Below are positions 5,701-38,392 of a DNA stretch of 58,192 bases, piece by piece. The position numbers and the translations under genes are program-made. The stretch is from Thermoplasmatales archaeon (lineage in GTDB: Archaea > Thermoplasmatota > E2 > DHVEG-1). A model generated the notes under the pieces. The model was not told where the DNA came from. It did not search any database and saw nothing but the letters and a program-made list of their open reading frames with translations. Positions within the stretch are counted from its first letter, which is position 1. Each line of letters starts with the position of its first letter. The stretch covers positions 1-58,192 of the forward strand of contig JBFYMG010000057.1 of NCBI GenBank assembly GCA_041305025.1. The letters are read 5' to 3'.

Positions 5701-8700
5701 CTCCAGTAGCGCCATCTGCCGGAGAGGGATTTGAGATTTGTGGAACCTGGTTTGCATAAATCTGATAAGTACAAGCCCAACCATCAGTATTCGGACCTGA
5801 GTATACTGTCAAGAAATAATTTCCTGCACAATAGATTGTAGCCGGTCTTGTATAACAGTCGGTACTAAAGGTTAGCGTATCTATTACTGTTCCACTATAT
5901 GCACCAAGACCATACGTGTTTATTGCCATGGTAACAGTTACGCCATCTGAAGCACTATTTCGATAGGATATTCCATAGATAGCACGATCTGCAGCTGAAC
6001 TGTACGAAACATTAAAAATATATGGATAATAAACGGTGTCACTGCCAGCAAACTCAAGAGTCCCGCCTGAAACCCATGACTTAGTAATAGCACCTGCACC
6101 TGAAATTTGAGTGATATTACATCTACCATCTGAATCAGAATCAACGTATGCGATTGCAAAAAAGTAAGTATCTACTACAAAAGAAGAAGTGCCTACTTTT
6201 TTTATGAAAGGATAATAAGCATTGTAGCGGTCAAATTCCCAACTACTTGTATTTGATGCAGCAATAGTACCAGTTGCTGTTATGTCACGAGTGCCCATAT
6301 GTCCGTCTGTGTTCTTACCAGAATAAACCCACACAAATGTGTTTGAATCCACTGCTTCCAAAGTTGCTGTAGGCATTTTTGAAATCGTATTGTCAATTGT
6401 GACATTTCCTAGTGCCGTTATTACCCCGGCATTTGTTATGTTATATGATTTTAACCTAAAATAATATGCATAATTACAATATGCAATAACAAAGATATTT
6501 GAAGTTGTACTTACTCCCATCTTTAAAACTGACGTTATGTTTGCGCCATTTAGTGTTTTACCCAAATACTCAGACCTTACATCACCACTAATCTTGGATT
6601 GCTGTATAGTTCCGTTTGTATCCCAGACTCTGAATGTAAAAGCATATATGAAACGCCCAACATTATTCGGGCCACCATTACAATAGAAACAAGCATAGAT
6701 GTTTCCATAGACCTTTTGAACAAATATCGAACCAACCGCGTTCGTCGTGGTGTTGAACGTCCATGATGATACGTTTGTTGAACGGATCGTACCATTGTTG
6801 TTCCATACTCTTATTGTATTCAATGAACCATGAAAATTTGTGGTTCCTGCACCTATAAGATAATATTCACTGTTGTTTACTCGTACTGCTGATACGTTCT
6901 TCCCAGTCTGTGGATTCCATTCAAATGAACTTGTAGTTTGGTCTGCGATAAGACCATAGGTAGGGTCAAGTTCGATATGCGTACCAAAAGGAATGTTATT
7001 TCTTTGTATTCTGAATTGGAATTTGCCGTCAATAATATTATTGTCAAATGACAGTCCTGAAAGCCTAGATACATCGCTGTAATCGTATCTAAGAGTAAAC
7101 TGATGATCAAACGCTGTATATTTTATATCAAAAGTTTTACTATCATCGTCATAACTATAATCATCAACAGGAATATCTATTGTAAGAGTAAGACTATAAT
7201 TTGCACGAGGATTAACAGTTGCAGTAAAATCAAGAGTGAATTTCTTTGATTTTTCTGTAACGTCTTTGTAGTTTATGGTCAAGCCGCCAACATCTTCCCA
7301 TTGGTCATTAATATGTGCTTGTAAATTCCATACAGTATGACCAAAAAGATAAACCCATGCTTTTTGATAATTCATCTTTGACGAAATAAACGAACCGGCT
7401 TGGCCTGTCTTTTGTTCCCAAAAATCATCATAAATTTTTGTTGTAATATTTGTATTTGTTTTAGCATTCGCACTTGCATAGTCATCTGACCATTGTTGTA
7501 AAGTTCCCCATGTCGTATAACTCCATGCCACATAATAATAGTTTATTGACTGACTCAGTCTGGTGTCAGAGTATTTCTTCTCTGTACCATCATATACTAA
7601 GGCACCATCATTTCTATTAGTTGGATATGAGCCAATCTTACGAACAATATATGTATTGTTTGCACCAACACCTTTACTCCACGATAAATCAATTCTTGAT
7701 TCGCCAAAAGTTTTTGCAAAAAAGTCGGTTGGTTGCAGTGGTTTAGGTAAAGAGGTATTAGTTTCTGTTTCACCTCCAGTACTTTCATTGGTGCTTTCTT
7801 GTTCTGAGACATCGCATTCACTAATCATACTTTTATTTTCATAACCAACAGCAGAACAAGATACGTTATATTCGTAGATTCCACTTTTATCAAAAGATTT
7901 ACTATAGATGTATAAATTGTTTGCATAGTCCATAATTACTGGTTCGGTCCAACCTTCCTCGTTGAAAGAGATAAGGCACACAGCATTTTCGATACTTTGA
8001 TTAAAACTACTATAATCGGCATAAAACGTTATCATATCATTTGCATATCTCTTTTCATAATCTGTATCATCCCAAATAATTAGATTCGAAACAATAGTCT
8101 CGTTTGTTGTTTCGTTATCATCATTTTCAGGTGGAATTGTTTCATTCGAAGGCGGTATAGTCTCATTCGAAGATCCATTTTCGAATATCGGAACATCAGA
8201 ATTAGCAGTTCCTCCAGTCTCATTTTTTATATCATCCAGAGGCAAAACGCTCCAATCAATCATCGAACTATATTGTGTTTTGTTTGCATCTATTGCTTTG
8301 ATAGTTGCAAAATATTCACCTGCCTTTGCATCACGAACAACCCACTTTGCCTGCCATAACTTATCATTAGTAGAATTGTCAGCTAACGACAAATCTATAG
8401 TTTCAATGCCGCCCATATCGGCAGTGACTGAGCGGACATTGTTGGAGGCGGGAATTGTTACATTTATGAATATTGTATCGCCATCGTGAACGCTTTGCGA
8501 AGAAAAAGAAATAGAAACACCTGAATTTTCATCATTACCATACAAGTATGGCAAGCTAGAAGGAATTACAACAAAGATCAAAATAAAGGACAATATTACT
8601 GCCAAAATCTTTCTTGAGGGCAACTTTTTTTTATATATTTTGAGAGAGTTCTTAGTTATTGCCTCTCTAAAAATTTCATCTGAGGATTTCTTTTTTTCAA

Positions 8701-8824
8701 ATTTTGCATCTAATTTAGAACATTCATTCTTAGATATAGCATCATCAACTAGAATATTTATATCATCAACTAATTCAGCAAGTTTTTTTTGTTCTTTTTC
8801 TGTTAGAGTTTTATCTGAAAACAC
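2747..8824 (-). CDS. Giant multidomain surface protein/adhesin (2025 aa): N-terminal TM/signal, Ig-like, FN3, two repeat propeller-like regions, BNR/Asp-box propeller, C-terminal pilin-like domain
   Basis: TM segment ILAVILSFILIFVVIP. FN3 motif (PTDFFAKTFGESRIDLSWS..YYYVAWSY). Asp-boxes KSTDDGVNW, RSTDGGASW, NSTNRGMTW. Internal duplication. GTG start preceded by ggggag. Confidence 0.88.
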   Translation of the reverse strand: MFSDKTLTEKEQKKLAELVDDINILVDDAISKNECSKLDAKFEKKKSSDEIFREAITKNSLKIYKKKLPSRKILAVILSFILIFVVIPSSLPYLYGNDENSGVSISFSSQSVHDGDTIFINVTIPASNNVRSVTADMGGIETIDLSLADNSTNDKLWQAKWVVRDAKAGEYFATIKAIDANKTQYSSMIDWSVLPLDDIKNETGGTANSDVPIFENGSSNETIPPSNETIPPENDDNETTNETIVSNLIIWDDTDYEKRYANDMITFYADYSSFNQSIENAVCLISFNEEGWTEPVIMDYANNLYIYSKSFDKSGIYEYNVSCSAVGYENKSMISECDVSEQESTNESTGGETETNTSLPKPLQPTDFFAKTFGESRIDLSWSKGVGANNTYIVRKIGSYPTNRNDGALVYDGTEKKYSDTRLSQSINYYYVAWSYTTWGTLQQWSDDYASANAKTNTNITTKIYDDFWEQKTGQAGSFISSKMNYQKAWVYLFGHTVWNLQAHINDQWEDVGGLTINYKDVTEKSKKFTLDFTATVNPRANYSLTLTIDIPVDDYSYDDDSKTFDIKYTAFDHQFTLRYDYSDVSRLSGLSFDNNIIDGKFQFRIQRNNIPFGTHIELDPTYGLIADQTTSSFEWNPQTGKNVSAVRVNNSEYYLIGAGTTNFHGSLNTIRVWNNNGTIRSTNVSSWTFNTTTNAVGSIFVQKVYGNIYACFYCNGGPNNVGRFIYAFTFRVWDTNGTIQQSKISGDVRSEYLGKTLNGANITSVLKMGVSTTSNIFVIAYCNYAYYFRLKSYNITNAGVITALGNVTIDNTISKMPTATLEAVDSNTFVWVYSGKNTDGHMGTRDITATGTIAASNTSSWEFDRYNAYYPFIKKVGTSSFVVDTYFFAIAYVDSDSDGRCNITQISGAGAITKSWVSGGTLEFAGSDTVYYPYIFNVSYSSAADRAIYGISYRNSASDGVTVTMAINTYGLGAYSGTVIDTLTFSTDCYTRPATIYCAGNYFLTVYSGPNTDGWACTYQIYANQVPQISNPSPADGATGVTAPVQLSVTVSDIGDMLNVTWSSNSSGSWVQFGANRSSATNQVMSYGAINTSVTSSREYNKQWGEYPDVIKVGSDATFSYYAIVNCGIGSKGLINTTKVWNSNGSVNRSCVDSYTFDTKGGSYPRILYWGDNTYIIVYYNNVTSRDTVITVDISTTGIITKSIGASLTLTYFSSGSEQTRIDVVRVTGNTFVVAHTDSAGRRLYLETFTVDNKITINGPIDIQAVNGAIEGVYPRMCMVDSDTVAIVYNDRGTNYGYLTTYDIDSGGNIGGAYVDSWTFDTQVSYPFIKKLGSSNCFAIAYRDVAGDGRCNTTRISDAGAITKSWFSGGTLEFDTADCAYPFISSLENNLYVITYQGTDGDGWMKTIKIKDDGQIPDIEYDSLEFDSTDNMGFAPMVSMGSDFYYIAWVGTGHDGWSCTVKIENETGTIVRQTNTNYSNFGTIYYWRVTLSDGTNTNYTTYSFTMGYTVKLDTSPTGLSLQYPGQRKLARDSNGYLYCVYNRTYGGASNIMCAKSTDDGVNWTEYTLTASATISHRGPSIAVDSYDYLHVVFNSSKDGGGGAGNGGITYMRSTDGGASWGTTRYLTKGDSLLSQMYPCMAVDSTDKLHVVWYGRYSGTGANYEIRYCNSTNRGMTWSWPSNVTTYSLFETGTAPSMAIDSNDFVHVVWHSTMGGAGGIEIRYSTENGRGIWSAAVTISVDSNSNDQTYPCIAIDGDDYLHVVWYGKWSGGSVTQIRYTKKTTTWSAPYNISEYTGNQYNPSISVTTGLNDLKVVWYGQKYAGDSALDLRFSEYKSTRWYQPTNLTYSMAYNFYYPNLIWAENPNGTNRPYAGYAFIYANSTTIKYYESTDLSWTVLSCDVSPSTWDIGRPSEGGINETTGSYFTFTNNGNVDVSVQIKASDAVNSSTGFTWNLTQEQSENNFSLRRKTGAEPWKYINETYAVFSSNIATTGTQTFDLKMLMATASTMSDINMTVTVTFKSIIK

Positions 8825-20207: not shown

Positions 20208-20381
20208 ATAATTTATCAATGATTCGCTGAAGAATCATTTAATAGCTTTTATTATTTTTAACTTTATTTATCATGGTCACAATAAATAGAATGTTTACCA
20301 AAGACCATTACAATAAAGTTGATGCTCTTTGCTTTAAAAAAACAAGCGTTCTCATTAAAAGTTATGTTGGTAAATGTTAAT

Positions 20382-20948
20382 TCAGTATTTTTTAAAGCCA
20401 ATCCAACGTGGAGTTTTCTTCGTATAATTTTTGTATTTTTCGCCATATTTTTCAAGGCAAAATTTTTCTTCGTATTTAACAAATAAAACTATAATTATCA
20501 TATAGACAAACGTTATTATTAGAAAAATCCAGGAGTTTGATATCAATCCTATTCCAATATACGCAAAGAAAAATGAGAGATACATCGGATTTCTTGAGTG
20601 TTTATACATACCTGTCGTCACAAGTTCATCTGCCGGTGTTTTTATCCAGCTTATACAAGCACTGCTAACAATAATTATTCCGATAGCCCATAAAACAATT
20701 CCTAAATAGAAAAAAATCGAATCAAAAACTATTGGTAAGAAAAAACTTAAAATAATTGCAAGTATAAAAAAAATTGAGGAAAGGTCATATATAAATCTAA
20801 AAAAACCATCTCTTTTAATTTTTTTTTTGGATGAATCTTCTGGCCTATTCTTTTTTTTATAAACAAAAGGAAGAATTGTTATTATAAGATAAACTATGAG
20901 CAAGATATATGCGTTTATTAAACCTAATTCAAAGTTATTATATATCAA
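20382..20948 (-). CDS. ICMT/PEMT-family membrane methyltransferase
   Basis: LVTTGMYKHSRNPMY and EE..C...YG..Y..Y...TPRW motifs, multiple TM helices, TTG start after aaggtt. Confidence 0.88.
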   Translation of the reverse strand: MIYNNFELGLINAYILLIVYLIITILPFVYKKKNRPEDSSKKKIKRDGFFRFIYDLSSIFFILAIILSFFLPIVFDSIFFYLGIVLWAIGIIIVSSACISWIKTPADELVTTGMYKHSRNPMYLSFFFAYIGIGLISNSWIFLIITFVYMIIIVLFVKYEEKFCLEKYGEKYKNYTKKTPRWIGFKKY

Positions 20949-21310
20949 TTTTTAACCTTGCTTTATTTTTTATATATTTTGTTTTCCCCAGCATATACTA
21001 ACGTTAATTATAAATAATTACCCTTTCAGCATCTCCTAAAATTATTTCTGTTTCATTTTTTATAAAATCCTTTGTAAAAAATTTACAGTTTTTATAAAAT
21101 ACAACTTTATCTGATTCATATACTGGTTTTTCATATCGAATTTTTTAGTTTAATCATTAACGGGTATTCTTCCAATTTATTTAGAACAACCTGCAATAAA
21201 CCCTTTTGTTTTTTGTCTTTATTGAAAAAAGGAGTGAAAATAAAAAAAAGTAAGATTATTTTTGATACGGTTAAATAAAGAAATAAATTAGAGTTGTTTT
21301 TTATTTTCAA

Positions 21311-21337
21311 CCAGTTGGTTAGCAATTACCCAACTGG
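21311..21337 (-). terminator. 8-bp stem-loop overlapping the stop codon of the precursor ORF (terminator or stabiliser)
   Basis: ccagttgg (21311-18) is the exact reverse complement of ccaactgg (21330-37), with an 11-nt loop. Confidence 0.5.
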
Positions 21338-21412
21338 ACACTCTGGAACATGTAGAGATCCGTATGTTATTTCCTTATTTACAGATTTCATTTTTGGTTT
21401 CGTGTATTTCAT
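21326..21412 (-). CDS. Putative RiPP precursor peptide, 28 aa: MKYTKPKMKSVNKEITYGSLHVPECPVG
   Basis: Manual translation. SD-like aggttgat just upstream, own BRE/TATA, YxxP motif in a Lys-rich leader, and location inside the rSAM/PqqD cluster. Confidence 0.8.
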   Translation of the reverse strand: MKYTKPKMKSVNKEITYGSLHVPECPVG

Positions 21413-21448
21413 TTTTTATCAACCTTATTAATTTTATATGTTTTTCTT

Positions 21449-21465
21449 TATATAAATAGTTTTCC
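21449..21465 (-). promoter_or_regulatory. Archaeal BRE/TATA promoter for the precursor ORF
   Basis: The minus strand reads GGAAAACTA-TTTATATA, ending 37 nt upstream of the ATG at 21412. Confidence 0.6.
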
Positions 21466-21506
21466 TTACATTTATTACCACATTTATAGACGATTTAGAA
21501 AATTAT

Positions 21507-22520
21507 TCAGATAAACTTTCTATAACTTAGATCTTTTAAAAACATTATTATTTGTATAATGAGAAATACGGTAGGTATTATCGACATTGTTAGAAATGAT
21601 AAAGAAGAATATACGAAAAATGGCCACAACATCGTTGAAATTGGAAGGAAAAAATTTATGTTTTTTTGTCTTAAATCAAAATCTTTTATTTTCTCATGTC
21701 TTAACCATAAAATCATAAGAACTGGAAACACCACTAGAAAGGAAAAAGTAATAATATCTAAATAAAAATTATAAACACATAAAACTAATAACAAAATCCA
21801 TAAGATAATAGCTACATGAATTGTCCAGTTATAGCCAAGTATCACATTAGTGGGTTTTATTCCAAATTCCTCATCTGTTTTAATATCCCGCCAACTGATA
21901 ATTAAAGTATAAGAAATGACGGGGATGCCCATTATCAATCCAAGAGCGAAAATATCCATACTTAGCTTCGCTCCAGTAGTCAACCATCCTAAAACAAAAG
22001 GTAAAGAACCGAAAATTAACATGTTTGAAATCATGTCTATCAGTGGTTTGGTTTTAAATCTAACAGGAGGTGCAGAATACGAAAATGTGATAATAACAAG
22101 AATCAAACCCACAATAAAAAGTGTAAAATCAAAATAATACCATAGAAAATATAAACCAATAAAAGAACAAATAATTGATGATATAAACATTTCTTTATCT
22201 GAAATATATTTGAATACCCACACATTATGTTTTCTTGCAAATATATCAAGTTTTTTATCAAATAAAAAATTAGTAAAGCCACTAATAAATTCAGCCAATA
22301 TTAGAAAAAATATCATTATCAAAGTAGGATAAAACAAAAAATCTTTTATTGCCCACCATTCTCCCAGCAACAAAAATGAAATAGTAATAGGAACTGTTGG
22401 AATGCGGGAGGCAATAAGATAAGCAAGAAATTTTCTTTTTAAATAGTTTAAGCGTGGATTTTTGATATTTTTATCGTCGAATTTTTTTCCCCAATAAAAT
22501 TCTTCGAAATTTTTAACCAT
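21507..22520 (-). CDS. UbiA-family prenyltransferase (copy 1)
   Basis: NFLFDKKLD and DIKTD Asp-rich motifs, YSAPPVRFKTKP, about 9 TM helices. Confidence 0.9.
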   Translation of the reverse strand: MVKNFEEFYWGKKFDDKNIKNPRLNYLKRKFLAYLIASRIPTVPITISFLLLGEWWAIKDFLFYPTLIMIFFLILAEFISGFTNFLFDKKLDIFARKHNVWVFKYISDKEMFISSIICSFIGLYFLWYYFDFTLFIVGLILVIITFSYSAPPVRFKTKPLIDMISNMLIFGSLPFVLGWLTTGAKLSMDIFALGLIMGIPVISYTLIISWRDIKTDEEFGIKPTNVILGYNWTIHVAIILWILLLVLCVYNFYLDIITFSFLVVFPVLMILWLRHEKIKDFDLRQKNINFFLPISTMLWPFFVYSSLSFLTMSIIPTVFLIIQIIMFLKDLSYRKFI

Positions 22521-22597
22521 ATGAATCAGCCGTTTTTTTTTCTTTCATGCAATACTTTTTAAGCTTTTTATACTTACTAAAATATTGAACAGATATT

Positions 22598-23638
22598 ATG
22601 AATAATAGTGCCACAGCAGATTCGTATAGTAATGACATAAACATTGACGGTTTTAAAATAAGAATAGATGATTTTATAGAAGAAAGAATACTTCCGGATT
22701 ATTTCAATTCACCCTTTATTGGACAATGGGAAATTACAAGAGAATGCAACCTTAGATGCATATTTTGTTATAACAATTCCGGAGAAAAACTACCTAATGA
22801 ATTAACACACAAACAAAAAATAAACGTTGCAAAACAGATTGTGGGGGAAAAAATATATCGAATGTGTATAAGCGGAGGAGAACCAATTCTTTGCGAGTCT
22901 TTTTGGGATATCGCTAAAATTTTAAAACAAGGAAAAATCTTCTGCAATACCATAACTAATGGATGGTATGTCAGCGAAGAAAATGCATCTTTATATGCCA
23001 AATATTTTAAAAATATTCAGATCAGTTTAGATGGCAGAAAAAAAGAGACGCACGATAAACTACGGGGTAAAAAAGGTAGTTGGGAAAAAGCCGTTAATGC
23101 CTGTAAACTAATCAAAGATAATGGAGGAAAAATATCAATTGCAACAGTTGTAACTCCAATTAATCTACATGAGATTGAAGAATTAATTGATTTTTCATAT
23201 AGCATGGGTGCAATGGATATAAAACTTGAGGAAGTGATATTTACAGGTAGGGCATCAAACATAACTTATGATATTTCTTTATCTGAAAAACAATCATCTG
23301 AACTAGCAAAAATAATAAAACATAAAAAAAATGAATACAATGAAAAATTGTTTAATGTCGATATCGTACCTAAGACTCAATATAATTATGTTAGGGGTTT
23401 TACAAAAATCCCGCCAGTCTCAATATATATTTCGCCAACTGGCACATGCGCAATCGACCCGGTTCTTCCTTTCTCGGGTGGTTCTTTAAAAGAAAAAAAT
23501 CTAAAGGAAATTTGGAGCAACCTTAAAAAAATTCATAAAAATAAAGATTTCATAAATTATTCACTGAAAGTAAAAACAGGAAAAGATTTTAAAAATATTG
23601 ATAATATCCCTTACTTCAATGGTGAATTACATGATTGA
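22598..23638 (+). CDS. Radical SAM enzyme, PqqE/MftC-like peptide-modifying type, with a degenerate SPASM/twitch tail
   Basis: WEITRECNLRCIFC, ISGGEP, TITNG, QISLDG..HD..RG..GSW; overlaps a PqqD gene. Confidence 0.9.
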   Translation: MNNSATADSYSNDINIDGFKIRIDDFIEERILPDYFNSPFIGQWEITRECNLRCIFCYNNSGEKLPNELTHKQKINVAKQIVGEKIYRMCISGGEPILCESFWDIAKILKQGKIFCNTITNGWYVSEENASLYAKYFKNIQISLDGRKKETHDKLRGKKGSWEKAVNACKLIKDNGGKISIATVVTPINLHEIEELIDFSYSMGAMDIKLEEVIFTGRASNITYDISLSEKQSSELAKIIKHKKNEYNEKLFNVDIVPKTQYNYVRGFTKIPPVSIYISPTGTCAIDPVLPFSGGSLKEKNLKEIWSNLKKIHKNKDFINYSLKVKTGKDFKNIDNIPYFNGELHD

Positions 23639-23924
23639 TAAAAATCTTAAACCAAAACTTGCAAAAGACATAGTATACAAAGAAGAAGGAAAAAAAGGGG
23701 AAACTATAAGCATGGCGAGTTACATAGGTGGCCCAATTAGACTTTTAAACCCTATTGCTAGTAAAACCGTTAAACTCTTAGATGGAAAACATACAATTCA
23801 AGAGATTATAACAGAAATATATGAATCATTTGAGGATACTGATTTAAAAACAGTAGAAAACGATATAATAGAATTTTTATTAGACCTTGAAAAAAAGAAA
23901 ATCATAGAACCATTAAAAAATTAA
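23631..23924 (+). CDS. PqqD-family RiPP recognition element (97 aa)
   Basis: LN..A......LDGKHT..EI...I...F......VE.DI.EFL..L.KKKII pattern. ATG at 23631 after ggtga, overlapping the rSAM stop. Confidence 0.9.
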   Translation: MIDKNLKPKLAKDIVYKEEGKKGETISMASYIGGPIRLLNPIASKTVKLLDGKHTIQEIITEIYESFEDTDLKTVENDIIEFLLDLEKKKIIEPLKN

Positions 23925-23930
23925 AAACAA

Positions 23931-24908
23931 TTACCCTTTAACATATTTTGTAAAGATAATAATGTCATAAATTATAAAAAATATCCAAATCATTAAAAAG
24001 AAAATTGGGAAAATATTTTTTGAAAAAAAACTTAACAAAATTAAGATAGCGCCTGCAAAAAATAAAGTGCTTAAACCCCCGACTATATTTACCAACAATT
24101 TACGATTATTTCTATAAACAAAAGCAAGGATTATAAGAGGAATATAAGCCAAAAGAGAAATTGTCAATAAATCCGTAATTTCAAAAAAATAGATCGCTAT
24201 AAATAAATCGAGTATGTATATGACACTCCCCACTATGAGAGAATTTTTTAAACCTATAATATTGCAAGAAGTTCTTATGCCCAATTCCTTATCCATCTCT
24301 ATATCAGTTGTTGTATAGAAAAAGAAAATATGTGAAATAATTAAAAAAAGAATTAAAAAATAAAAAATAGACTCAAAGGTTAAAGAATTTAGTGTTATCA
24401 TCCATCCCATAAAAAAAGGAATCGACCCGCCTAGTGCATTCATTAAACAATCAAATGGTGGTTTTGTTTTAAGTCTAATTGGGGGAGTAGAATAAAATAT
24501 ACCTATTACAACTATTAAAAATCCCAACAAAAAAACCTCAATGTTTATAAAAAAATATAGCAATAACAGAGGAATAAATGATAAAAAAACGGACATAACC
24601 AGCATTTCTTTTGTAGAAATATATTGAAATACTTTAACAATAGGTTTTCTTGCGAATATATCAATTTTTTTATCAAAGACGATATTTATCATAGAGCCTG
24701 CCGAAAAAATTCCTAAAAGCGCCAATAATACAATCACACTTTCAACAACTGGGAATTTTTGTATAGAATACCATTCACCTAAAAGAAAAAAAACTGATAC
24801 AATAAACCAACAAGATAACCTAAACGAATTAATGTAAGAAATAAATTTATTTTTTAAAAAACGGGATTTTGAGTTTTGCTTTTTCTCAACCATCTGCATC
24901 AAGTCCAT
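23931..24908 (-). CDS. UbiA-family prenyltransferase (copy 2)
   Basis: NIVFDKKID and DIEMD motifs, YSTPPIRLKTKP, multiple TM helices; clear paralog of 21507..22520. Confidence 0.9.
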   Translation of the reverse strand: MDLMQMVEKKQNSKSRFLKNKFISYINSFRLSCWFIVSVFFLLGEWYSIQKFPVVESVIVLLALLGIFSAGSMINIVFDKKIDIFARKPIVKVFQYISTKEMLVMSVFLSFIPLLLLYFFINIEVFLLGFLIVVIGIFYSTPPIRLKTKPPFDCLMNALGGSIPFFMGWMITLNSLTFESIFYFLILFLIISHIFFFYTTTDIEMDKELGIRTSCNIIGLKNSLIVGSVIYILDLFIAIYFFEITDLLTISLLAYIPLIILAFVYRNNRKLLVNIVGGLSTLFFAGAILILLSFFSKNIFPIFFLMIWIFFIIYDIIIFTKYVKG

Positions 24909-25007
24909 TAGTTTTTTACTTAAATAACTTATCTTAAGTTCGAAATTTTGTATAATTCAAAAAGTGTATAAACTTTAATAGTAAGATAGAATATTATATC
25001 GCTAGAG

Positions 25008-26276
25008 ATGAATAAAGACAAAGACGACGAAAAAAATTTATTAAACAAATCTTCTAAAGAAGGACATATAATTGATAATGTACCATTTGTGGGCCAAGAA
25101 AACAGTATTTTTTGTTCATATGCTTGTCAAACAATGATTATAAAATATTATAATCGAAATGTTAACTTAGACGATTTTGTTTTTAACTCAGGAGTAAGTT
25201 ATTCGTTAGGCTATGCTAAAGATTATTTTAATTACTTTCCAACTTGTGGTACTTTTTTATCACAATGGCCACTCGACAGAAATTTTGTCGCTAATCTTTA
25301 TGGTTTAGAATTCGAAACCTGGTTTCCAACTGATTTAAGCAATTCAACATCTGAAATCTGGAATACGTATTGGGAAAAAATAAAATCATATCTCAAAAAT
25401 GATATTCCTGTATCTACATCAGTAGATTTAGTATCTCTACCTGCCTTTAGAGAACTCATCAACAATCAGTTGTGGATAAATGCAAAAAAAATCCCAAATT
25501 TCTCATGGAGCTTAGTTTCAACTGCCCATGAAATAGTAATTGTTGGATTCGATGAAGGAAAAAAATTGATTTACTACAATGATCCTGTTTCATTAAATCT
25601 TGGCAATGTTGATAATGGAATATATGCATCTGCTCCTTTGGATGTTTTTGCAAGATCAGTAGCTAATGCAAAAGTTGGTAATTTTTTTCCCAACTTCATC
25701 ATCAACACATATAAGGAAAAAAAACCTGCTTCATCTGATGAGATTATTTTTAGAAAATCACACGATAGAAATATCCAAAAACTTAGAGGAAATCCTTTAT
25801 TTTATGATGAGAAGTGGCGAAAATATCCTCTTGGCATAAATGCATTAAATGAAATAATTAAAAATTTTGAAAATATGAATAAAGAGAAAAATAAAGAATT
25901 AATATCAACATACAAATTAGATAGTGTTAAAAAAGCTTTTATGAAAAAGATTTCCTCAATTTTTACTAAAAAATCAGGTTCTCAATACCTAATTGATTCA
26001 TTTATAAATATTTATGATATTTTTTCTACTGAAAAAAAACATGCTTATGACTATTTAAAAAATAAATCTATAAATTCAAAAGAGTTACAAAATGAAATAG
26101 ATCTATTTGGTAAAGAAATGGAGAAATGGCAAGAAATTTCAAAATTTTATTCACGTTTTTACAAAGAATTAGTGCTTCCAACAAAAAACAATAAAATTCA
26201 AAAATTTAATGAAAAATTAGTTTCAAATATTTCAGATATAATAGATATCGAAAAAAGAATAGCAGATATTTATTAA
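25008..26276 (+). CDS. C39-like (BtrH_N/C39_2-type) cysteine peptidase
   Basis: NVPFVGQENSIFCSYACQTM (Gln/Cys) and HEIVIVGFD..IYYNDP (His/Asp) papain-like triad pattern; no signal peptide. Confidence 0.8.
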   Translation: MNKDKDDEKNLLNKSSKEGHIIDNVPFVGQENSIFCSYACQTMIIKYYNRNVNLDDFVFNSGVSYSLGYAKDYFNYFPTCGTFLSQWPLDRNFVANLYGLEFETWFPTDLSNSTSEIWNTYWEKIKSYLKNDIPVSTSVDLVSLPAFRELINNQLWINAKKIPNFSWSLVSTAHEIVIVGFDEGKKLIYYNDPVSLNLGNVDNGIYASAPLDVFARSVANAKVGNFFPNFIINTYKEKKPASSDEIIFRKSHDRNIQKLRGNPLFYDEKWRKYPLGINALNEIIKNFENMNKEKNKELISTYKLDSVKKAFMKKISSIFTKKSGSQYLIDSFINIYDIFSTEKKHAYDYLKNKSINSKELQNEIDLFGKEMEKWQEISKFYSRFYKELVLPTKNNKIQKFNEKLVSNISDIIDIEKRIADIY

Positions 26277-26307
26277 AAAATAGTTAACTAGATCAGTAGG
26301 AATAAAC

Positions 26308-27168
26308 ATGGATAATATAAAAATTGATATAAACGGGGTGTCGGAGACGCTTTTTTTTATCTTATATGCAAGAGCTATAGAAAGTCAATCAAAAGACCCA
26401 ATTATACAGGACCAAAAATCTGCTGAAATCGTTAAAATCCTTGATAAATTTCTTTCAGAATCAAATTCAAAAACACTTAAAAAACTTTATAACCGTAGGC
26501 TTTCAAAATATTATGTAATTTTAAAAGCCTTAAGAACAAAAAAATTTGATGATTATGTTAAAGACTTTTTATCAAAAAATCCAAATGGAATCATTGTAAA
26601 CATGGGATGTGGATTGGACACAAGATTTTATCGTATTGACAACGGAAAAGTAGAATGGTATGATATAGATTTACCACAAGTAATAGAGTTAAAAAAATAT
26701 TTCCTAAAAGAAAATGAAAGGTACCATTTCATAAGTTCTTCATTACATGATTTTAATTGGATGGATGTTTTATCAAAACATAAAGACCAATCTTTTATGT
26801 TTCTTGCTGAAGGAGTCTTTCAATACTTTTATGAAAATGAAGTAAAATCACTAATAGTTGAATTGCAAAAAAAATTTCCGGGATGTGAAGTTGCATTTGA
26901 TGTGACAAGCATGTGTATGAAAAGAAAACAAAATAACAGATTATTTAATGCCTATTTTAAATTCATGACAGGTTTAAATCAAGATGTAAATATTAACTTT
27001 GGGATTAAAAAAAGTCAAGAGATTTCATCTTGGAATGATGGCATTGAATTATTAGATGAATGGAGTTTTTTTGATAGGGAAATAGAAAAATTAAAATTTT
27101 TTAAGTTATACAAATTTTTAGAATCTGTAAGAAGAACAGATTGGATTGTTCGCTATAAATTGATTTAG
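26308..27168 (+). CDS. Class I SAM methyltransferase, LCM/TcmP-like
   Basis: GVSETL...YARA.ES, RT..FD, IVNMGCGLDTRFYR, WYDIDLP.VI, FLAEGV. Confidence 0.88.
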   Translation: MDNIKIDINGVSETLFFILYARAIESQSKDPIIQDQKSAEIVKILDKFLSESNSKTLKKLYNRRLSKYYVILKALRTKKFDDYVKDFLSKNPNGIIVNMGCGLDTRFYRIDNGKVEWYDIDLPQVIELKKYFLKENERYHFISSSLHDFNWMDVLSKHKDQSFMFLAEGVFQYFYENEVKSLIVELQKKFPGCEVAFDVTSMCMKRKQNNRLFNAYFKFMTGLNQDVNINFGIKKSQEISSWNDGIELLDEWSFFDREIEKLKFFKLYKFLESVRRTDWIVRYKLI

Positions 27169-27313
27169 TTTTTTAATATCGTTGGTTGTTTTGTCGAAAG
27201 ATTTTTTATTATTTTATTAAAAAAATTATCTTTTCATTTTAAAAAACATAGATTTGATGTTTTAAAAACGTTAATAAATATATTACACATTATAAAGGCG
27301 GAGGCAAATAAGT

Positions 27314-29818
27314 ATGAAAAAAATTTTATCGATTGTTTTAGTAGGAATATTAATTTTGAGTGGAATTCAAGTTGTTGCTATCACAAGCAATACAAATACC
27401 GATGTAAAAGCCGATGCTAAATCTGAGATGATCATAAAGGCATTTTCAACACCAACAATAAAAGACAGTGACAATAGCTACATCGAAGTTAATCTTAAAG
27501 ATGCATCATCTTATTTGATGAGCCCTGGTCAGCCCAAGCTGCCAAAGGTTGTTGAATCTTTTGAATTACCTTTTGGTGCTAAAAATATTAAAGTGGAAGT
27601 GGCACCAGGTACTATTGTTGAACAGAAAATTACAAAAGAAATATGTCCTGCGCCTGCTATGCTTCCATTGATAGCTGATGAAAATACAGTTAGTTTTACC
27701 CAAGAAAAGGATTTAAAAACATACAGCAGCGATGATCCTTATCCCTCCAATTGGTACAGCTATAATGTTAGGTGTGGTTTAAACAAGGACAACGAAAGAG
27801 TAATTAATGTTATAGTTGACATTTATCCAGTAAGATATGTTCCATCCAAAGGAATTATTTACACTACGGAAAGTAGCGACATAAAGATAACTTATGAGGA
27901 AACCGACAGACAAATTTTCAATGGAGTTACAGAATATGATCTTGTAATTATTGCACCCTCTAAGTTTAAAAATCAACTTAAAAGGTTAGTGGATCATAAA
28001 AATAGCGTAGGAATAAGTACCTTTATTAAAACAACCGAAGAAATTTACAAAGAATACTCTGGCCGTGACAAACCAGAGAAAATAAAATATTTTATAAAAG
28101 ATGCAATTGAGAAAAACAATATCATATATGTTCTCCTTGTTGGTGGTTTGAAATCACAGATTTACGCTAAACCAAGAGATGACGCAAATCAGGGTACAAG
28201 AGGATGGTACGTACCGGTACGTTACACCAATCTTTATGACAATCCAAAATTCCCACTCGCCGAAAAATACTATGATCCAGGCATAATAAGCGATTTGTAC
28301 TATGCTGATATATATGATGGAAATGGAAATTTCAGCAGCTGGGATACAAACAATGACGATATATTTGCTGCATGGGGCAAACCAGGTGTGAAAAACGACA
28401 CAGGAATAGATTTACAACCTGATGTGTGCCTAGGTAGACTTGCATGCACAAGTAGAAGAGAAGTAAAAACAGTTGTTGATAAAATAATAAAATACGAAAC
28501 TAGTTCTGTTAGCACAACTGATTGGTTTAATAAAATGACAGTTGTGTCAGGCGATGGATTTATTGATCAACAGGATCTAAATATTAAATGGGACACAACA
28601 GGTTTAATAAACGGATATTACACAATATATGCACAGAGTATAAACGATGAAAATTTGGAAGGCCCTGTTGATACAATATCAATAAGGATAGATAGAAGAC
28701 TTGAAACTAAAATTACTTTTAATCATGATGACAACCTAAATCCTGCACTTAAAAATGGTTATCCTGCACCCCCTATAGCTGAATTGGTTTCCATATCACC
28801 TGACGACATACTAGGCTACAGTGACTATACATATACTCCTAATGAAGGAGAAGCATATGGTAATGATTTCAATCACTGGGCAAACATTAGCTACATAGAT
28901 GGTATCCTAACAATAAGGGGTAAATCATATGATCCGCAGCCCTATGGAAATCTTACAAATATTCATGTGTGGATTAAAAACCAAGATGGCATAGTTATTT
29001 TTTCGGAGTGGAGAAACAACACTGAGATGTATTATGAGGGAGAATGGACAACCGGTGAAAAAGAGTTATCAGGAAGAGGTGGAGCCCTTTACTACATACC
29101 CAGTAGCTTTGAAAGAAACATACTTTGGACTTCAAATGGCAGATTGACAGGACAAAAAGATGTTCTTAAAGCTATAAATGAAGGTTGTGGTTTTCTTTTC
29201 ATGTCAGGTCATGGTAGCCCAAATGTTTGGGCTGATCACTACCCGGGTGTTCCTGGAAACCGCAAATATGGAAGCGTCACTGGTCTGCAGGTTTCAACCG
29301 TCAAACCATGGCGTCCTTTTTATTCAAGACCAGCTTTCCCGATTGATACTCTTTCAAACGATGAAAAACTGCCGATCGCAGTGATTGGTGGTTGTCACAA
29401 CAGCCAGTTTAATGTCTCTTTAATTCCTGCATTATACGATATTCTTCCAACCTATCTTAAGTTCCTACCAAAAATATCTATGTGGACATATGGTAGCGCT
29501 GTTCCAGAATGTTTCAGCTGGCGTCTGATAAGCAACCCACATGGTGGCGCAATAGCGACAATAGGCAATACTGGTCTTGGTTATGGTATGCCAGGCAAGG
29601 ACTTAACCATAGGCGGTGGTGACGGATGGATCACTATAGAGTTCTTCAAACAATACGGAACGGAAAATCAGACAATACTTGGAAAAGCACACACTCAGAC
29701 AATTATAAGTTATATACATAACTTTGATATGAATGATCTTGAAGCAGGTCATCCTAAAACAGTGCAACAATGGGTTTTACTGGGAGATCCCACTTTAAAG
29801 ATAGGCGGGTACAGCTAA
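27314..29818 (+). CDS. Secreted C25 (gingipain-family) cysteine peptidase with propeptide
   Basis: Signal peptide, propeptide (PGQPKLP), YVLLVGG, SDLYYAD, GRL, catalytic SGHG and GGCHN, LLGDPTL. Confidence 0.9.
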   Translation: MKKILSIVLVGILILSGIQVVAITSNTNTDVKADAKSEMIIKAFSTPTIKDSDNSYIEVNLKDASSYLMSPGQPKLPKVVESFELPFGAKNIKVEVAPGTIVEQKITKEICPAPAMLPLIADENTVSFTQEKDLKTYSSDDPYPSNWYSYNVRCGLNKDNERVINVIVDIYPVRYVPSKGIIYTTESSDIKITYEETDRQIFNGVTEYDLVIIAPSKFKNQLKRLVDHKNSVGISTFIKTTEEIYKEYSGRDKPEKIKYFIKDAIEKNNIIYVLLVGGLKSQIYAKPRDDANQGTRGWYVPVRYTNLYDNPKFPLAEKYYDPGIISDLYYADIYDGNGNFSSWDTNNDDIFAAWGKPGVKNDTGIDLQPDVCLGRLACTSRREVKTVVDKIIKYETSSVSTTDWFNKMTVVSGDGFIDQQDLNIKWDTTGLINGYYTIYAQSINDENLEGPVDTISIRIDRRLETKITFNHDDNLNPALKNGYPAPPIAELVSISPDDILGYSDYTYTPNEGEAYGNDFNHWANISYIDGILTIRGKSYDPQPYGNLTNIHVWIKNQDGIVIFSEWRNNTEMYYEGEWTTGEKELSGRGGALYYIPSSFERNILWTSNGRLTGQKDVLKAINEGCGFLFMSGHGSPNVWADHYPGVPGNRKYGSVTGLQVSTVKPWRPFYSRPAFPIDTLSNDEKLPIAVIGGCHNSQFNVSLIPALYDILPTYLKFLPKISMWTYGSAVPECFSWRLISNPHGGAIATIGNTGLGYGMPGKDLTIGGGDGWITIEFFKQYGTENQTILGKAHTQTIISYIHNFDMNDLEAGHPKTVQQWVLLGDPTLKIGGYS

Positions 29819-30595: not shown

Positions 30596-33520
30596 TTACT
30601 TACCACCTTCATTTAATGGATCATATGGATTGAGTGCTGGATCTCCAAATAACATATACTCCTGATATGATGTATATTTGTTCTTCATCATATATGGATC
30701 TTCCAAGGCCGCGCTCTCCATTAAATTCGAATAAGTATTTCTTATCTGAACATCTTCTGCTAAATCTCCCGTATTTACTAGCGGTGGAGACCACCATAGT
30801 TCCCAGTCTGCATCCTGCGGAATGTACTTATTTTTAGCATCCCTTAAGGCCTTTCCGAAAGTAGCATCATCGTTTGTTATTGAATCAAGCATATCTGAAT
30901 ATATAAGGAAGCCAAAGTGATCGTCCGGATAAATGCCGTTCTTGGCGTTACGTTTTGCTTTTATGTATGACGCCAAAACTGAGAGATGAGTATCGACCTG
31001 TCTTTTCTTAGGCTCAAGATAACCTCCAGCAATATTTGATCCTGTTGGAGATGCAATAAGAGTCGCTACACCTGCATGCAAGAATGATTGGCCAAGGCTA
31101 CCTTTGGGATACATTCCATCTATTTTTCCACAGATACAACTCTCAAGCCATACGAAAGATGGACCTAATTTCATGGTCTCTACTTGTCGAGTATTGTATT
31201 GACAATGGGCCGCAAGAGAGGAACCAGGTCCTGTGCTAGGAGATACAACTTCCAATACCTTTTTCATCATAAACTTTGCTATGGGGCCTCCTATACCTGA
31301 GGATATTAAGTCAATACCATCCATGGCAAGAATGGCCATATTACCATGTCCATTTAAAAACGCAAAGTTAGCATCTTCTATCATCTTCCCGCCCGTTACA
31401 GCTCCTTCTCCGACGAGTTTTCTAATCATTGGCTTGAAGAATAACAATTTATTATAAGCTGCTGATTCATATTTAATCTTATTAAGAGCTTCATCGCTAA
31501 ATCCTTGTAAACCTGCTTGCTCTTTATAGGCTTGGTATACAGTTGTAAATCCCCATGTTTCTTTTGCATCTACAACCATTTTTTCCAACATTATTTCGCC
31601 ATAACCTGTCTCTAGTTTCATTGGCTCACCAGCATGGCCTGCGCCAAGTAACTTAGCTATTGGATACTTAATTGGAGGTTGCTGGAAATCTTGACCTTCA
31701 CCAACTAATACTGTAAAGGTGTCTTTCCAATCACCTAACTTCTCAATGATATCAGAGTAAAAGATGTTCCTAGCAATTAAAGCGCTGGCGTCTTGAGCAT
31801 CCCAGCCAGTTATACGCCCTACAATATTTTCTTGATATGGATACTTTGTAAAAACATCGTTTGCGAGGTTAGACCAATCATAGAGCGTTGGATCAATATT
31901 ACCATAAACTACATCGCTGGGGGTACCAACGCCCCAACCATACTGTCCATTCCAGTAATCAACGGGTTCAAGATAATTCTGATAAATAAAGTTAGGCAGA
32001 ACTGTGCCATCACCTACTAGTGCAATATAAACGGGAAATGCATCATAATGATCACGTAAAGTTTTGATATCTCTATCATCTACAAGTTCAATATCTGCAA
32101 TTTTGGCTAATACATCATTTAATGGTTTGTGAATTACATCAAAAAAATGCGTGTTTGCTTTATCTGTTATCCTAGGATTCCTTCGAGGCATATAGAAACC
32201 TGGACTGGTAGTTCCTTCATCGGTTAATACATCATCATCAGCAGTGAAAGCAAACTCAGGTTTAGCAAATACAATTCCATGATGATAAGCTGTTAAATAT
32301 GGTGCTAACGATGAAAGACCCTTCATCATTGGATAAACTGGATTTTCAAGTTTTTCCACAACAACATTTGCCGTAACTCTGCCTTGCTTCAAAGTTAGCC
32401 ATTGCCCTTTGCATCTAACTGTGTACTCTACGCCTCCACGACCATACAACACTGTTTCACCATATATCATATCTGTGATTAAATTGCCATTTGCATCTCT
32501 TTCTGCTATGCCGCCTGTTGCAGTTGAGCCTGAAAAGCCTTCATTAGTTTGAAGAGGTGAAGGTATATCAGGAAGATTTGCACCAACAGTGAAAGTTACA
32601 GAATCGCCGAGTTCATCTACATTCTCACAATCAAGATTTATTCCTTCAAATTTTATGAGAGCATATTTGTAATCATTCGGTATTTTAAAAGTGCCTAAAG
32701 TATATGCTCCTCCCTTAAGTAGAGCCTGGCCGATTCTTGTGCTAGAACCAGACGGGATCGTCATTGGTCCAAAAGAAAATGAAACAGCATCTAAAACCTT
32801 TGGTGGCCACGCATCTCTTGGATTTGCAAGAGTAATATAATCGATGTCACCAAATTTCTCTTGGACTAATTCAATGGATGCATCAACAATTTCATCAACA
32901 TCATCAAATTTTATGTAATCTCCATAACCATCTACATCACCGCAAACAAGCGAGTATTTAACACCTAGATCTTGGAGAACTTTATTTACATCTTGGTCGA
33001 GTTCATCAGTAACTATGATGGGCATGGTAAGATACGAAGCCAATGGAGCAGCTACAACACCCAGATCATAACCAGTTTCATTATTCTCTATTATGAGAAC
33101 TCCATCGCTGTGATCCCAATATTCCTTTGCAATTTGAAGAGAACATTCCTTTGCGGAAGTACCTTCTTTCGCGGGAATTTGTATTTTACCTGATTGCATA
33201 TCTAACTGATCATATAATTTAGTAACAGCTGATGATGGATCATCTAAATTTACTACTAAAAAAGGTTTTGTATGCTGTACGCCCTCGGTGTCATAGTGGA
33301 CAGCCAATGGTGTCGCAATAAGAGCATAAAATGGACTACAATCCAAAACGGATATTGCATCTGGCGCATTAGAAGATAAAACGCCGGAAACACTGAATAC
33401 TTCTTCTAGATTTGCCTCTACTTTTTTTGTTTCTTGAGGAGCCCAGTAATAGACTCCAATTGAAGCCATTACTAATATTAATACTCCAAATAAAACTATT
33501 AACTTATCATTCTTTTTCAT
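30596..33520 (-). CDS. Large membrane-anchored C25-like cysteine peptidase relative (974 aa)
   Basis: N-terminal TM, IALVGD, VGRITG, FLNGHG, WLESCICG and LFGDPAL echo the C25 catalytic layout. Confidence 0.65.
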   Translation of the reverse strand: MKKNDKLIVLFGVLILVMASIGVYYWAPQETKKVEANLEEVFSVSGVLSSNAPDAISVLDCSPFYALIATPLAVHYDTEGVQHTKPFLVVNLDDPSSAVTKLYDQLDMQSGKIQIPAKEGTSAKECSLQIAKEYWDHSDGVLIIENNETGYDLGVVAAPLASYLTMPIIVTDELDQDVNKVLQDLGVKYSLVCGDVDGYGDYIKFDDVDEIVDASIELVQEKFGDIDYITLANPRDAWPPKVLDAVSFSFGPMTIPSGSSTRIGQALLKGGAYTLGTFKIPNDYKYALIKFEGINLDCENVDELGDSVTFTVGANLPDIPSPLQTNEGFSGSTATGGIAERDANGNLITDMIYGETVLYGRGGVEYTVRCKGQWLTLKQGRVTANVVVEKLENPVYPMMKGLSSLAPYLTAYHHGIVFAKPEFAFTADDDVLTDEGTTSPGFYMPRRNPRITDKANTHFFDVIHKPLNDVLAKIADIELVDDRDIKTLRDHYDAFPVYIALVGDGTVLPNFIYQNYLEPVDYWNGQYGWGVGTPSDVVYGNIDPTLYDWSNLANDVFTKYPYQENIVGRITGWDAQDASALIARNIFYSDIIEKLGDWKDTFTVLVGEGQDFQQPPIKYPIAKLLGAGHAGEPMKLETGYGEIMLEKMVVDAKETWGFTTVYQAYKEQAGLQGFSDEALNKIKYESAAYNKLLFFKPMIRKLVGEGAVTGGKMIEDANFAFLNGHGNMAILAMDGIDLISSGIGGPIAKFMMKKVLEVVSPSTGPGSSLAAHCQYNTRQVETMKLGPSFVWLESCICGKIDGMYPKGSLGQSFLHAGVATLIASPTGSNIAGGYLEPKKRQVDTHLSVLASYIKAKRNAKNGIYPDDHFGFLIYSDMLDSITNDDATFGKALRDAKNKYIPQDADWELWWSPPLVNTGDLAEDVQIRNTYSNLMESAALEDPYMMKNKYTSYQEYMLFGDPALNPYDPLNEGGK

Positions 33521-37852: not shown

Positions 37853-38392
37853 CTACTTCTTTATTTTTTTATCTTTATCCAGCATTTTGAAAACAGATGG
37901 TAAGTGAATATTATAGGATCCGTCTTTCTGTATGATAATTGGTTCTTCTTCAAGTAGACCTTTAAGATTGATATTGTATCTTCCAGATTGTTCTACATCT
38001 ATTGTCCCGGGACTGTCTGATTCTTCAGATTCTAATTTTTCTAAGAGCTCTTTACGTTTTTCGTCTGCTGTAGCATCTGTTTCTTTCTTCTTAATGGTTG
38101 TTTTTTCTTTTTCAGATAGATGAAGGTCAATTGCTTTGCGAATATCCTTTGCTTTTATAGTTACCCATTTGTCGGATTTACTGACAATTTTCCCGTTTTC
38201 CGCTCCAATTACTTCTATTATTGTAGAGTTTAAGTCTTTAACTACTTCGTTGGCTATGATATTTCTTTCCTCTTCAGTTAATGGTTTTTTGGTGAAAAAA
38301 AATCTATTTCCTCCACAATCTGAGCAGCCTTTCAAAAGCTCAGGGGATCCTTTATCAAATGTTTGTCCGCATTTAAGACACTGATGAGGCAT
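37853..38392 (-). CDS. oapC: OapC/ArvC-family Zn-ribbon protein (DUF2072)
   Basis: MPHQCLKCG..F..GS..LLKGCSDCGGNRFFF, and C-terminal G.Y.INL..LL..EP.II..DGSY.I.L. Confidence 0.88.
   Translation of the reverse strand: MPHQCLKCGQTFDKGSPELLKGCSDCGGNRFFFTKKPLTEEERNIIANEVVKDLNSTIIEVIGAENGKIVSKSDKWVTIKAKDIRKAIDLHLSEKEKTTIKKKETDATADEKRKELLEKLESEESDSPGTIDVEQSGRYNINLKGLLEEEPIIIQKDGSYNIHLPSVFKMLDKDKKIKK

Follow-up and report, generated by a model that had tools for sequence, protein, structure and literature searches.

The locus described here occupies positions 20382 to 21412 of a 58,192-nt stretch of a Thermoplasmatales archaeon contig (JBFYMG010000057.1; this whole stretch is referred to as the window) and contains, on the minus strand, a gene for a short precursor peptide and a gene for an integral-membrane methyltransferase (MT). 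Together they form the left edge of a 7-kb island of 26-31% GC, which is flanked by gyrB-gyrA (40-41% GC) on one side and by a C25 peptidase gene (37%) on the other, and in which the gene order is MT, decayed small open reading frame (ORF), precursor, UbiA1, radical S-adenosylmethionine (SAM) enzyme (rSAM), PqqD, UbiA2, C39-like peptidase and LCM-family methyltransferase. Comparison with homologous loci revealed that, in one terminal clade, the peptide core gained a cysteine at the fourth position from the C-terminus (-4) and the cluster gained an MT of the ICMT superfamily at the same time. It is probable that the locus represents the precursor and a clade-specific tailoring MT of an undescribed Thermoplasmatales cluster for a small lipidated ribosomal peptide. 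The features of the locus are as follows.

20382..20948, minus strand: ICMT/PEMT-superfamily integral-membrane SAM methyltransferase (MT), 188 aa, TTG start, five helices
21004..21144, minus strand: small-ORF remnant between precursor and MT, 46 codons, without canonical start
21326..21412, minus strand: precursor peptide gene, 28 aa, MKYTKPKMKSVNKEITYGSLHVPECPVG; leader MKYTKPKMKSVNKEITYGS, putative core LHVPECPVG
21418..21470, minus strand: upstream signals of the precursor gene, with a TATA-like box TTTATATA (21449-21456) and a Shine-Dalgarno-like GGTTGAT (21418-21424)

Translation of the ORF at 21326-21412 agreed with an earlier note on this DNA, made from the sequence alone, in that the precursor ends in Cys-Pro-Val-Gly and that its sole Cys (Cys25, within a putative core of 9 aa) is at -4. 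The leader is PqqA-like, with the consensus MKYxKPKMKxVxKE[IV]xYGS across homologues; M1, K2, Y3, P6, M8 and E14 were invariant among the 13 distinct precursors aligned, and the cores, of 8-13 residues after the leader, were hypervariable. A small leader profile detected one or two precursor genes in each locus long enough to contain them, so that homologues are present in 12 distinct loci, some of which carry two precursor genes. In the four closest loci the coding region differs by synonymous codon changes, and the block GTAA[GC]GAAAACTAT[TA]TATAT[AC]AAG followed by GGTTGAT is kept upstream of the gene in the window, L001, L226 and L227, with no such conservation of the neighbouring intergenic DNA. 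The kept leader, the synonymous changes and the kept upstream signals show that the precursor gene is real. A search of GTDB genomes with a DNA pattern of the precursor gave no examples beyond two metagenome-assembled genomes (MAGs) already in the set, and a protein search with a 42-aa extended precursor ORF matched only itself. We infer that the leader is cleaved after G-S, a small-small pair that is replaced by G-T, G-A or A-G in other members. The remnant at 21004-21144 matches an ORF of 54 aa that is intact and occupies the corresponding position in L227 (53% identity, E=1e-14), and its counterpart is mostly deleted in L001 and L226; a Y-E-K-P stretch in it faintly resembles the precursor leader.

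A Cys at -4 is alone uninformative, being present in 7 of the 259 ATG-initiated ORFs of 20-40 aa in the window, and it counts here because it is conserved across loci and not because of a single ORF. Homologous loci were gathered with the rSAM as handle from GTDB genomes, JGI metagenomes and assemblies, and were counted as 12 distinct loci; L161, L081, L082, L228 and L229, whose contigs end before the precursor/MT side, were left out of this count. The rSAM of L229 is 78% identical to that of the window and sister to the Cys clade. The C-terminal tails of the precursors and the state of the MT in the 12 loci were as follows.

Window: tail LHVPECPVG; MT present
L001: tail LHVAECPIA; MT present
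L227: tail LHVSECPVA; MT present
L226: tail LHDPVYCPVA; MT present
L002/L088: tail QYFVLAIPGPD; MT absent
L166: tails LYYRPSPIPH and QYWILAVPSPD; MT absent
L164/165: tail LHHTYPIGYT; MT absent
L162/163: tail LWIPFNPYTGAPM; MT absent
L230/231: tail LWLPYGPTNPIL; MT absent
L168: tail LYAGIYPL; MT absent
L084/L167: tails AYLLIQSSP and AYMLLAQTP; MT absent
L169: tail a divergent form; MT absent

All four loci with a C-P-[VI]-[AG] terminus carried the MT (72-84% identical to that of the window in the other loci of the Cys clade), and the eight MT-less locus types were without any precursor Cys. The earlier note had proposed to check whether Cys -4 and the ICMT gene are conserved together; they co-varied perfectly (both in 4/4, either in 0/8), within one clade. 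The same note had named variation or absence of the Cys in homologous precursors as what would refute its reading; the Cys was indeed absent from most of them, but those same clusters were also without the MT. The C-P-[VI]-[AG]-stop terminus is encoded with both TGT and TGC codons among the four MT-bearing loci. The core of L226 has one extra residue, inserted upstream of the Cys, so that the position -4 is kept, and therefore the distance from the Cys to the C-terminus is preserved.

The pairing was also seen at a single chromosomal site. The Cys- and MT-bearing L227 (1-2330) and the loci L164 (4315-5639), L162 and L230, which have neither, adjoin the same purP gene (DUF1246/DUF1297; 89-95% protein identity), and the difference between L227 and L164, whose PurP neighbours share 95% amino acid identity, is the MT together with the small ORF inserted beside the precursor. 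The MT, the small ORF and the Cys are present in some variants of one chromosomal site and missing from others, and this presence or absence of the Cys and MT module at the same site amounts to a natural experiment. Because Cys and MT co-vary across loci, they probably form a functional pair.

A different explanation would be that the MT is a passenger at the island edge, acting on a lipid or another cellular substrate, and that the Cys is one more variable core residue. As the earlier note had cautioned, ICMT-like genes are common in prokaryotes: at least 574 MT relatives of 39% identity or less were found in GTDB, commonly in Dehalococcoidia, Bathyarchaeia and others, and none of 79 loci of such relatives was beside UbiA, rSAM, PqqD, C39 or LCM genes, from which it follows that the MT was recruited from a widespread stand-alone family. 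The dependence of the pairing on a single clade and the MT's own intergenic region also fit a passenger. On the other hand, the GC content of the MT (26.6%) matches that of the island and not that of gyrA (41%), and the MT accompanies the cluster beside three unrelated neighbours, namely gyrA in the window, saccharopine dehydrogenase in L226 and purP in L227. Furthermore, the MTs linked to the cluster are 57-84% identical and group tightly, with a gap in identity between them and the relatives at 39% or below, and the MT is absent from the allelic Cys-less variant at the PurP site. The linkage of the MT to the cluster is specific in the Cys clade, and a passenger gene is accordingly regarded as quite improbable.

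The remaining genes of the cluster, which include the two prenyltransferase genes that the earlier note had correctly placed nearby, are listed below.

21507..22520, minus strand: UbiA-family membrane prenyltransferase 1, 337 aa; Pfam UbiA 68.7 bits; motifs NFLFDKKLD and DIKTD
22598..23638, plus strand: radical SAM enzyme, 346 aa; Pfam Radical_SAM 90 bits; PqqE/SkfB-like core, without SPASM/twitch cysteines
23598..23924, plus strand: PqqD-family peptide chaperone (RiPP recognition element, where RiPP is a peptide synthesized on the ribosome and modified after translation); Pfam PqqD 39 bits; NCBIfam PQQ_PqqD, ScmD and GeoRSP PqqD
23931..24908, minus strand: UbiA-family membrane prenyltransferase 2, 325 aa; Pfam UbiA 96.5 bits; motifs NIVFDKKID and DIEMD
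25008..26276, plus strand: C39-like papain-fold cysteine peptidase, 422 aa; Pfam Peptidase_C39_2 51.8 bits; Q-x5-C motif (QENSIFC)
26308..27168, plus strand: LCM/TIGR00027-family SAM methyltransferase, 286 aa; Pfam LCM 75.5 bits; TIGR00027 86 bits

The precursor was always clustered with PqqD, an rSAM without SPASM, UbiA (two copies in most loci) and a C39-like peptidase, and in most loci also with the LCMT-like methyltransferase, which is present in nearly all clusters of the family. The cluster has the features of an rSAM RiPP pathway dependent on a RiPP recognition element (RRE), namely a small precursor, encoded beside the enzymes, whose leader is conserved and whose core varies, and a PqqD-type RRE with an rSAM of the CxxxCxxC type. 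Both UbiA paralogs passed PF01040, and their Asp-rich motifs (NxxxDxxxD and DxxxD) were intact in the orthologues at all loci; UbiA1 was marginally more diverged than UbiA2. The C39-like peptidase, conserved in homologous clusters, is the likely leader peptidase. The best PDB matches of the LCM-family enzyme were LCMT1/PPM1, the C-terminal leucine carboxyl methyltransferases of PP2A (1e-7), with a likeness of 35 bits over about 65 residues only. In many cores the C-terminus is the only carboxylate. As called from the first TTG, the frames of rSAM and PqqD overlap by 41 nt (23598-23638), and the true start of PqqD may lie further downstream.

The rSAM bears on a further possibility, which the earlier note had raised as a caveat: that the Cys donates its sulfur to a thioether made by the rSAM, as in sactipeptides or ranthipeptides. 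In the PDB, the rSAM matches the sactisynthase SkfB best (2e-36) and then PqqE (2e-23), and a PqqD-type RRE is present. However, the rSAM is kept in the eight Cys-less locus types and in a Cys-free bacterial cassette described below, the CxxxCxxC motif at C50/C54/C57 is invariant and the Cys residues that are invariant or nearly so are limited to C50, C54, C57, C90 and C116, and neither a Pfam SPASM match, nor a SPASM/twitch Cys motif, nor a conserved C-terminal Cys cluster was found in the rSAM. A thioether at this Cys is therefore highly improbable.

More distant clusters of the family (L168, L167/L084, L169 and the P0017 contig) add YcaO, a sulfatase-family gene beside UbiA and a second rSAM with SPASM, as well as split B12-rSAM genes, a geranylgeranyl-reductase-like (GGR-like) gene, glycosyltransferases and a sulfotransferase; some of them have two C39-like peptidases and two precursor genes.

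The next-closest relatives of the rSAM (about 30-33% identity) were found in Planctomycetota, Brocadiaceae, Omnitrophota, WOR-3, Bacillota and others, in a cassette of a precursor, PqqD, one or two SPASM-less rSAM genes and a MenA-like UbiA (L007:9389-11786; L004-L028, e.g., L005, L012 and L018). The bacterial precursor has a homologous leader (KWxKPxLxxV) and is Cys-free, with the motif [KQR]W[QDE][KR]PxLEDVSxx[VI]MAQPYIRFT, of which the tail MAQPYIRFT is almost invariant across phyla, a cofactor-like degree of conservation. Like the archaeal cluster, the cassette thus combines a leader homologue, PqqD, a SPASM-less rSAM and an adjacent UbiA-family prenyltransferase. Unlike it, the cassette lacks C39, LCM and ICMT-like genes, and it has a near-invariant core and a single MenA-type UbiA. 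Neither an NCBIfam model nor a publication on the bacterial cassette was found. The most conserved feature of the archaeal core is the aromatic residue at its position 2 (H, Y or W), which takes up roughly the same place in the alignment as the invariant Tyr of the bacterial precursors.

Based on this gene content, a pathway of five steps can be proposed. The leader would first be bound and presented by PqqD, and the core would then be modified by the rSAM and the UbiA enzymes, with the conserved aromatic residue at core position 2 as the best candidate site, and become membrane-bound through prenylation. The C39-like peptidase would subsequently cleave after the small-small pair G-S, and the LCMT-like enzyme would methyl-esterify a carboxylate. 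In the Cys clade, the membrane MT would finally add a methyl group in a manner dependent on the Cys-containing C-terminus of the membrane-bound prenyl-peptide. For this last step, our ranking is a CaaX-like reaction, which as the first choice still has a minority probability, then thiol S-methylation, then methylation of another carboxylate and lastly the passenger gene considered above. The first is favoured by the fixed -4 register and by ICMT-type best matches; parsimony favours S-methylation, since exactly one nucleophile and one MT were gained.

The relationships of the MT bear on this ranking. The MT passed PEMT (PF04191) with 48.3 bits against a cut-off of 25, and DUF1295 was also matched. 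In the PDB, 4A2N, the 'ICMT' of Methanosarcina acetivorans, was the best match by sequence, with a full-length alignment at E=5e-8; its C-terminal SAM-binding motifs, of the pattern R-[HN]-P-x-Y ... E-E, are kept (SRNPMY compared to IRHPMY of 4A2N, with EE present) and are invariant in the MT family alignment. The AlphaFold2 model of the MT (pLDDT 75.8) had the eukaryotic ICMT 5v7p as its top Foldseek match, followed by steroid reductases of the same fold. The term 'ICMT-like' is therefore fair for the MT at the level of superfamily and fold, and not at that of the family. The same superfamily also includes the thiol S-methyltransferase MddA and the rhamnolipid carboxyl methyltransferase RhlM, and behind an ICMT model the next NCBIfam matches of the MT were MddA and then the lipid A methyltransferase LmtA.

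In accordance with the MddA match, the MT might convert the Cys of the prenylated, membrane-bound peptide to S-methyl-Cys, as MddA methylates methanethiol. This explanation is the most parsimonious, because it requires neither a protease nor a new prenyltransferase and matches the two gains. Nevertheless, with 30 bits against a cut-off of 270 the MT matches MddA weakly, and only in the shared SAM-binding C-terminus, and S-methylation leaves the register between Cys and C-terminus unexplained, an argument that is itself weak with four close relatives. Overall, S-methylation is considered rather unlikely.

Methylation of another carboxylate, either of the clade-specific Glu/Asp or of an untrimmed C-terminus, with the Cys having another role or none, is less likely again. 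For the bacterial ICMT-family member RhlM, knockouts and modelling implicate carboxyl methylation of a membrane-partitioning amphiphile, an action on a carboxyl other than that of prenylcysteine (PMC11069360). In line with this, the cores of all four Cys-clade loci hold exactly one acidic residue (E24 in the window; D in L226), and most other cores hold none. However, this acidic residue shifts (-5 in three loci, -7 in L226) while the Cys is fixed, and carboxyl methylation would already be provided in these clusters by the LCMT-like enzyme.

In the CaaX-like reaction, a UbiA enzyme would S-prenylate Cys25, Pro-Val-Gly would be removed, and the MT would methylate the alpha-carboxyl of the prenyl-Cys to give LHVPEC(prenyl)-OMe. 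The tails of the Cys clade (CPVG, CPIA, CPVA and CPVA) fit the Cys-aliphatic-aliphatic-X pattern: the Cys holds strictly to -4 in each of the four loci despite the upstream insertion or deletion, a2 is aliphatic (V/I) and X is small (G/A). Pro at a1 is atypical of a CaaX box, but a1 is a tolerant position. Moreover, the best family-level and structural matches of the MT were ICMT enzymes, the prenyltransferases and the MT are all membrane enzymes within one cluster, and Cys and MT co-vary perfectly. Compared with eukaryotic CaaX processing, as in the yeast a-factor, the shared features are a short peptide, Cys at -4, an aliphatic a2, a small X, an ICMT-fold methyltransferase and prenyltransferases. 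The eukaryotic enzymes, however, are a soluble zinc alpha/beta heterodimer, farnesyltransferase (FTase) or geranylgeranyltransferase I (GGTase-I), and an Rce1/Ste24 protease; here the prenyltransferases are UbiA-fold membrane enzymes that predate the Cys, no such protease was found in the window, the MT matches at superfamily level, and the peptide is a leader-dependent rSAM/PqqD RiPP. A full CaaX-like route is consequently held as tentative.

Several groups of observations weigh against it. The first concerns the prenyltransferases. Every Cys-less cluster has both UbiA paralogs, which are intact and co-diversify; among the compared loci the arrival of the Cys was not accompanied by a new prenyltransferase, and neighbour-joining trees of UbiA had no obvious long branch at the base of the Cys clade. 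As the Cys-less clusters and the Cys-free bacterial cassette also carry UbiA, these enzymes were not recruited for Cys prenylation, and the presence of the same trio in the bacterial cassette makes the link of peptide, rSAM and UbiA ancient and Cys-independent. The Cys replaces no conserved nucleophile and sits in a hypervariable column. We know of no precedent for S-prenylation by a UbiA-fold enzyme, and none was found in the literature searches. The second group concerns the other enzymes of the route. No homologue of Rce1/CPBP, Ste24/M48 or FTase/GGTase was detected among the Pfam-scanned ORFs of at least 110 aa in the 58-kb window, in which the other prenyl enzyme is one cis-prenyl (UPP) synthase (34492-35280); the C39-like peptidase as a substitute aaX protease would be conjecture. 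The LCM-family enzyme is retained in the Cys clade, which is odd if another enzyme re-methylates a trimmed C-terminus. The MT itself fell just below the Pfam ICMT (PF04140) cut-off (23.3 bits against 24) and well below that of its best NCBIfam match, isopcys_mtase (NF040696; 52.4 bits against 160), and the methyl acceptor of the archaeal 4A2N is undetermined (PMC11069360).

The third group concerns the linkage. The MT is the next co-directional gene, 377 bp downstream of the precursor across an AT-rich spacer, and over the Cys-clade loci this distance was 172-378 bp; the MT probably has its own promoter. In the rSAM tree, the four Cys/MT loci and the incomplete contigs of unseen state form one terminal clade among Cys-less clusters, and the pairing is therefore a single derived gain and not twelve independent observations. 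Co-inheritance of Cys and MT by linkage alone is possible.

From these results, the description of the neighbouring gene as ICMT-like, given in the earlier note, stands for superfamily and fold (4A2N, 5v7p) and fails at the family thresholds, and its suggestion of an archaeal CaaX analogue using UbiA enzymes retains the Cys/MT pairing, while the age of UbiA relative to the Cys and the absence of an aaX protease or FTase from the window leave the remainder unsupported by the comparison. CaaX-type chemistry is one of several live options, and the history of the UbiA genes does not favour it. The column that holds the Cys contained C, I, S, V, Y, N, G or Q directly before a conserved Pro, and the idea that the Cys replaces a conserved Tyr nucleophile before that Pro was ruled out because of this hypervariability.

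Another known system that resembles the cluster is the pyrroloquinoline quinone (PQQ) pathway (PqqA/PqqD/PqqE): common to both are a PqqD chaperone, an rSAM whose core matches PqqE and a leader of the form K-[YW]-x-K-P...E-[IV]-T-Y. The likeness of the leader to PqqA (K-W-x-K-P ... E-V-T-x-Y) fits the PqqD and PqqE-like partners. The PqqA pair E-x-x-x-Y is, however, E14-x-x-Y17 here, with Y17 replaced by F or S in some members; PqqB, PqqC and PqqF are lacking, the rSAM is without SPASM, and the core is hypervariable, so that the product is not a fixed cofactor. For the same reasons, the core being hypervariable and pqqB and pqqC being absent from every cluster, a PQQ-like cofactor was rejected. 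The system functions in part as RRE-guided rSAM maturation of the PQQ type does and may function in part as CaaX processing does, and it belongs to neither, with no FTase or CaaX protease in the window. As a previously undescribed variant of RRE/rSAM RiPP pathways, the cluster family is a more novel result than the CaaX question.

RhlM of Paraburkholderia is likewise an ICMT-fold membrane methyltransferase within an amphiphilic secondary-metabolite cluster (PMC11069360); it differs in being bacterial and in acting on a glycolipid carboxylate and not on a peptide, and the likeness is at the level of fold. Hardly any natural substrates of the ICMT-like family are known outside eukaryotes (PMC11069360), and the Cys/MT sub-clade would give a concrete candidate substrate for a prokaryotic ICMT-like enzyme. 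With ComX/ComQ and the F-type enzymes of cyanobactins, the cluster shares a ribosomal peptide, probably prenylated here, and a comQXP-like polymorphism beside conserved flanks. ComQ has an isoprenyl-diphosphate-synthase fold and the F-type enzymes are soluble ABBA prenyltransferases; neither is UbiA-fold, and neither system has an rSAM/PqqD step. To our knowledge, prenylated RiPPs use ComQ-type or ABBA-fold enzymes. UbiA is not mentioned in a 2026 review of peptide prenylation (PMC13290415), and in our literature search UbiA was not combined with PqqD, rSAM and precursor peptides in any paper, nor was anything relevant found on archaeal prenylated RiPPs. A survey of archaeal RiPPs contained no prenylated class and had no success with rSAM clusters. 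The documented lipidation of archaeal Cys, by archaeol thioethers on N-terminal lipoboxes via AliA/AliB, is unrelated to the present system. Provided that the peptide is acted on by the UbiA enzymes, the family would, to judge from the literature search, be the first of the RiPPs to be lipidated by UbiA-fold membrane prenyltransferases, and would also be one of the first archaeal rSAM RiPP families whose logic can be tested.

The genomic setting of the clusters was also compared among loci. The cluster forms a hyperdivergent island of low GC whose chromosomal sites are conserved: the cluster genes adjacent to purP were 52-77% identical, compared to 89-95% for the flank, a difference that points to diversifying selection as at pheromone or bacteriocin loci. 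The Cys/MT type and one Cys-less type co-occur in the same two samples. The combination of a conserved flank and a hyperdivergent cassette resembles pherotype and bacteriocin loci and suggests a strain-specific signal or toxin; strain-level chemical discrimination has been little explored in uncultured Thermoplasmatota. That the whole would amount to a convergent prokaryotic CaaX route to an a-factor-like lipopeptide, as a module recently added to an older UbiA/rSAM peptide-lipidation pathway resembling a pherotype or bacteriocin locus, is doubtful. A virus-borne cluster was ruled out by the finding of 0 matches in viral contigs.

The genomes nearest to this one are MAGs of uncultured Thermoplasmatales. 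The low-GC island (20208-27313 of the window) is sharply set off from the genes of 37-43% GC on either side, and the same contrast was seen in seven other loci. Two large Peptidase_C25 (gingipain/PorU-like) proteins (27314-29818, plus strand, and 30596-33520, minus strand) flank the island. In L002 and L166 the first of these genes keeps its synteny with gyrBA and the cluster, and it is therefore probably a host gene outside the cluster. The remaining genes of the window have housekeeping functions, with purL-like, prefoldin, UPP synthase, riboflavin, OapB/OapC, Rad50/Mre11-like, ribosomal protein and aminoacyl-tRNA synthetase genes. The origin-associated OapC and OapB (37853-38769, minus strand) adjoin GTPase and Rad50/Mre11-like genes, and the window may lie near a replication origin. 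An ORF of 2025 aa with a GTG start (2747-8824, minus strand) had no Pfam match at E<=0.001 and adjoins a PKD-domain protein (1232-2554). At 51997-53196 (minus strand), a 399-aa protein combines an archaeal EMC6-like domain with a weak PGF-CTERM match.

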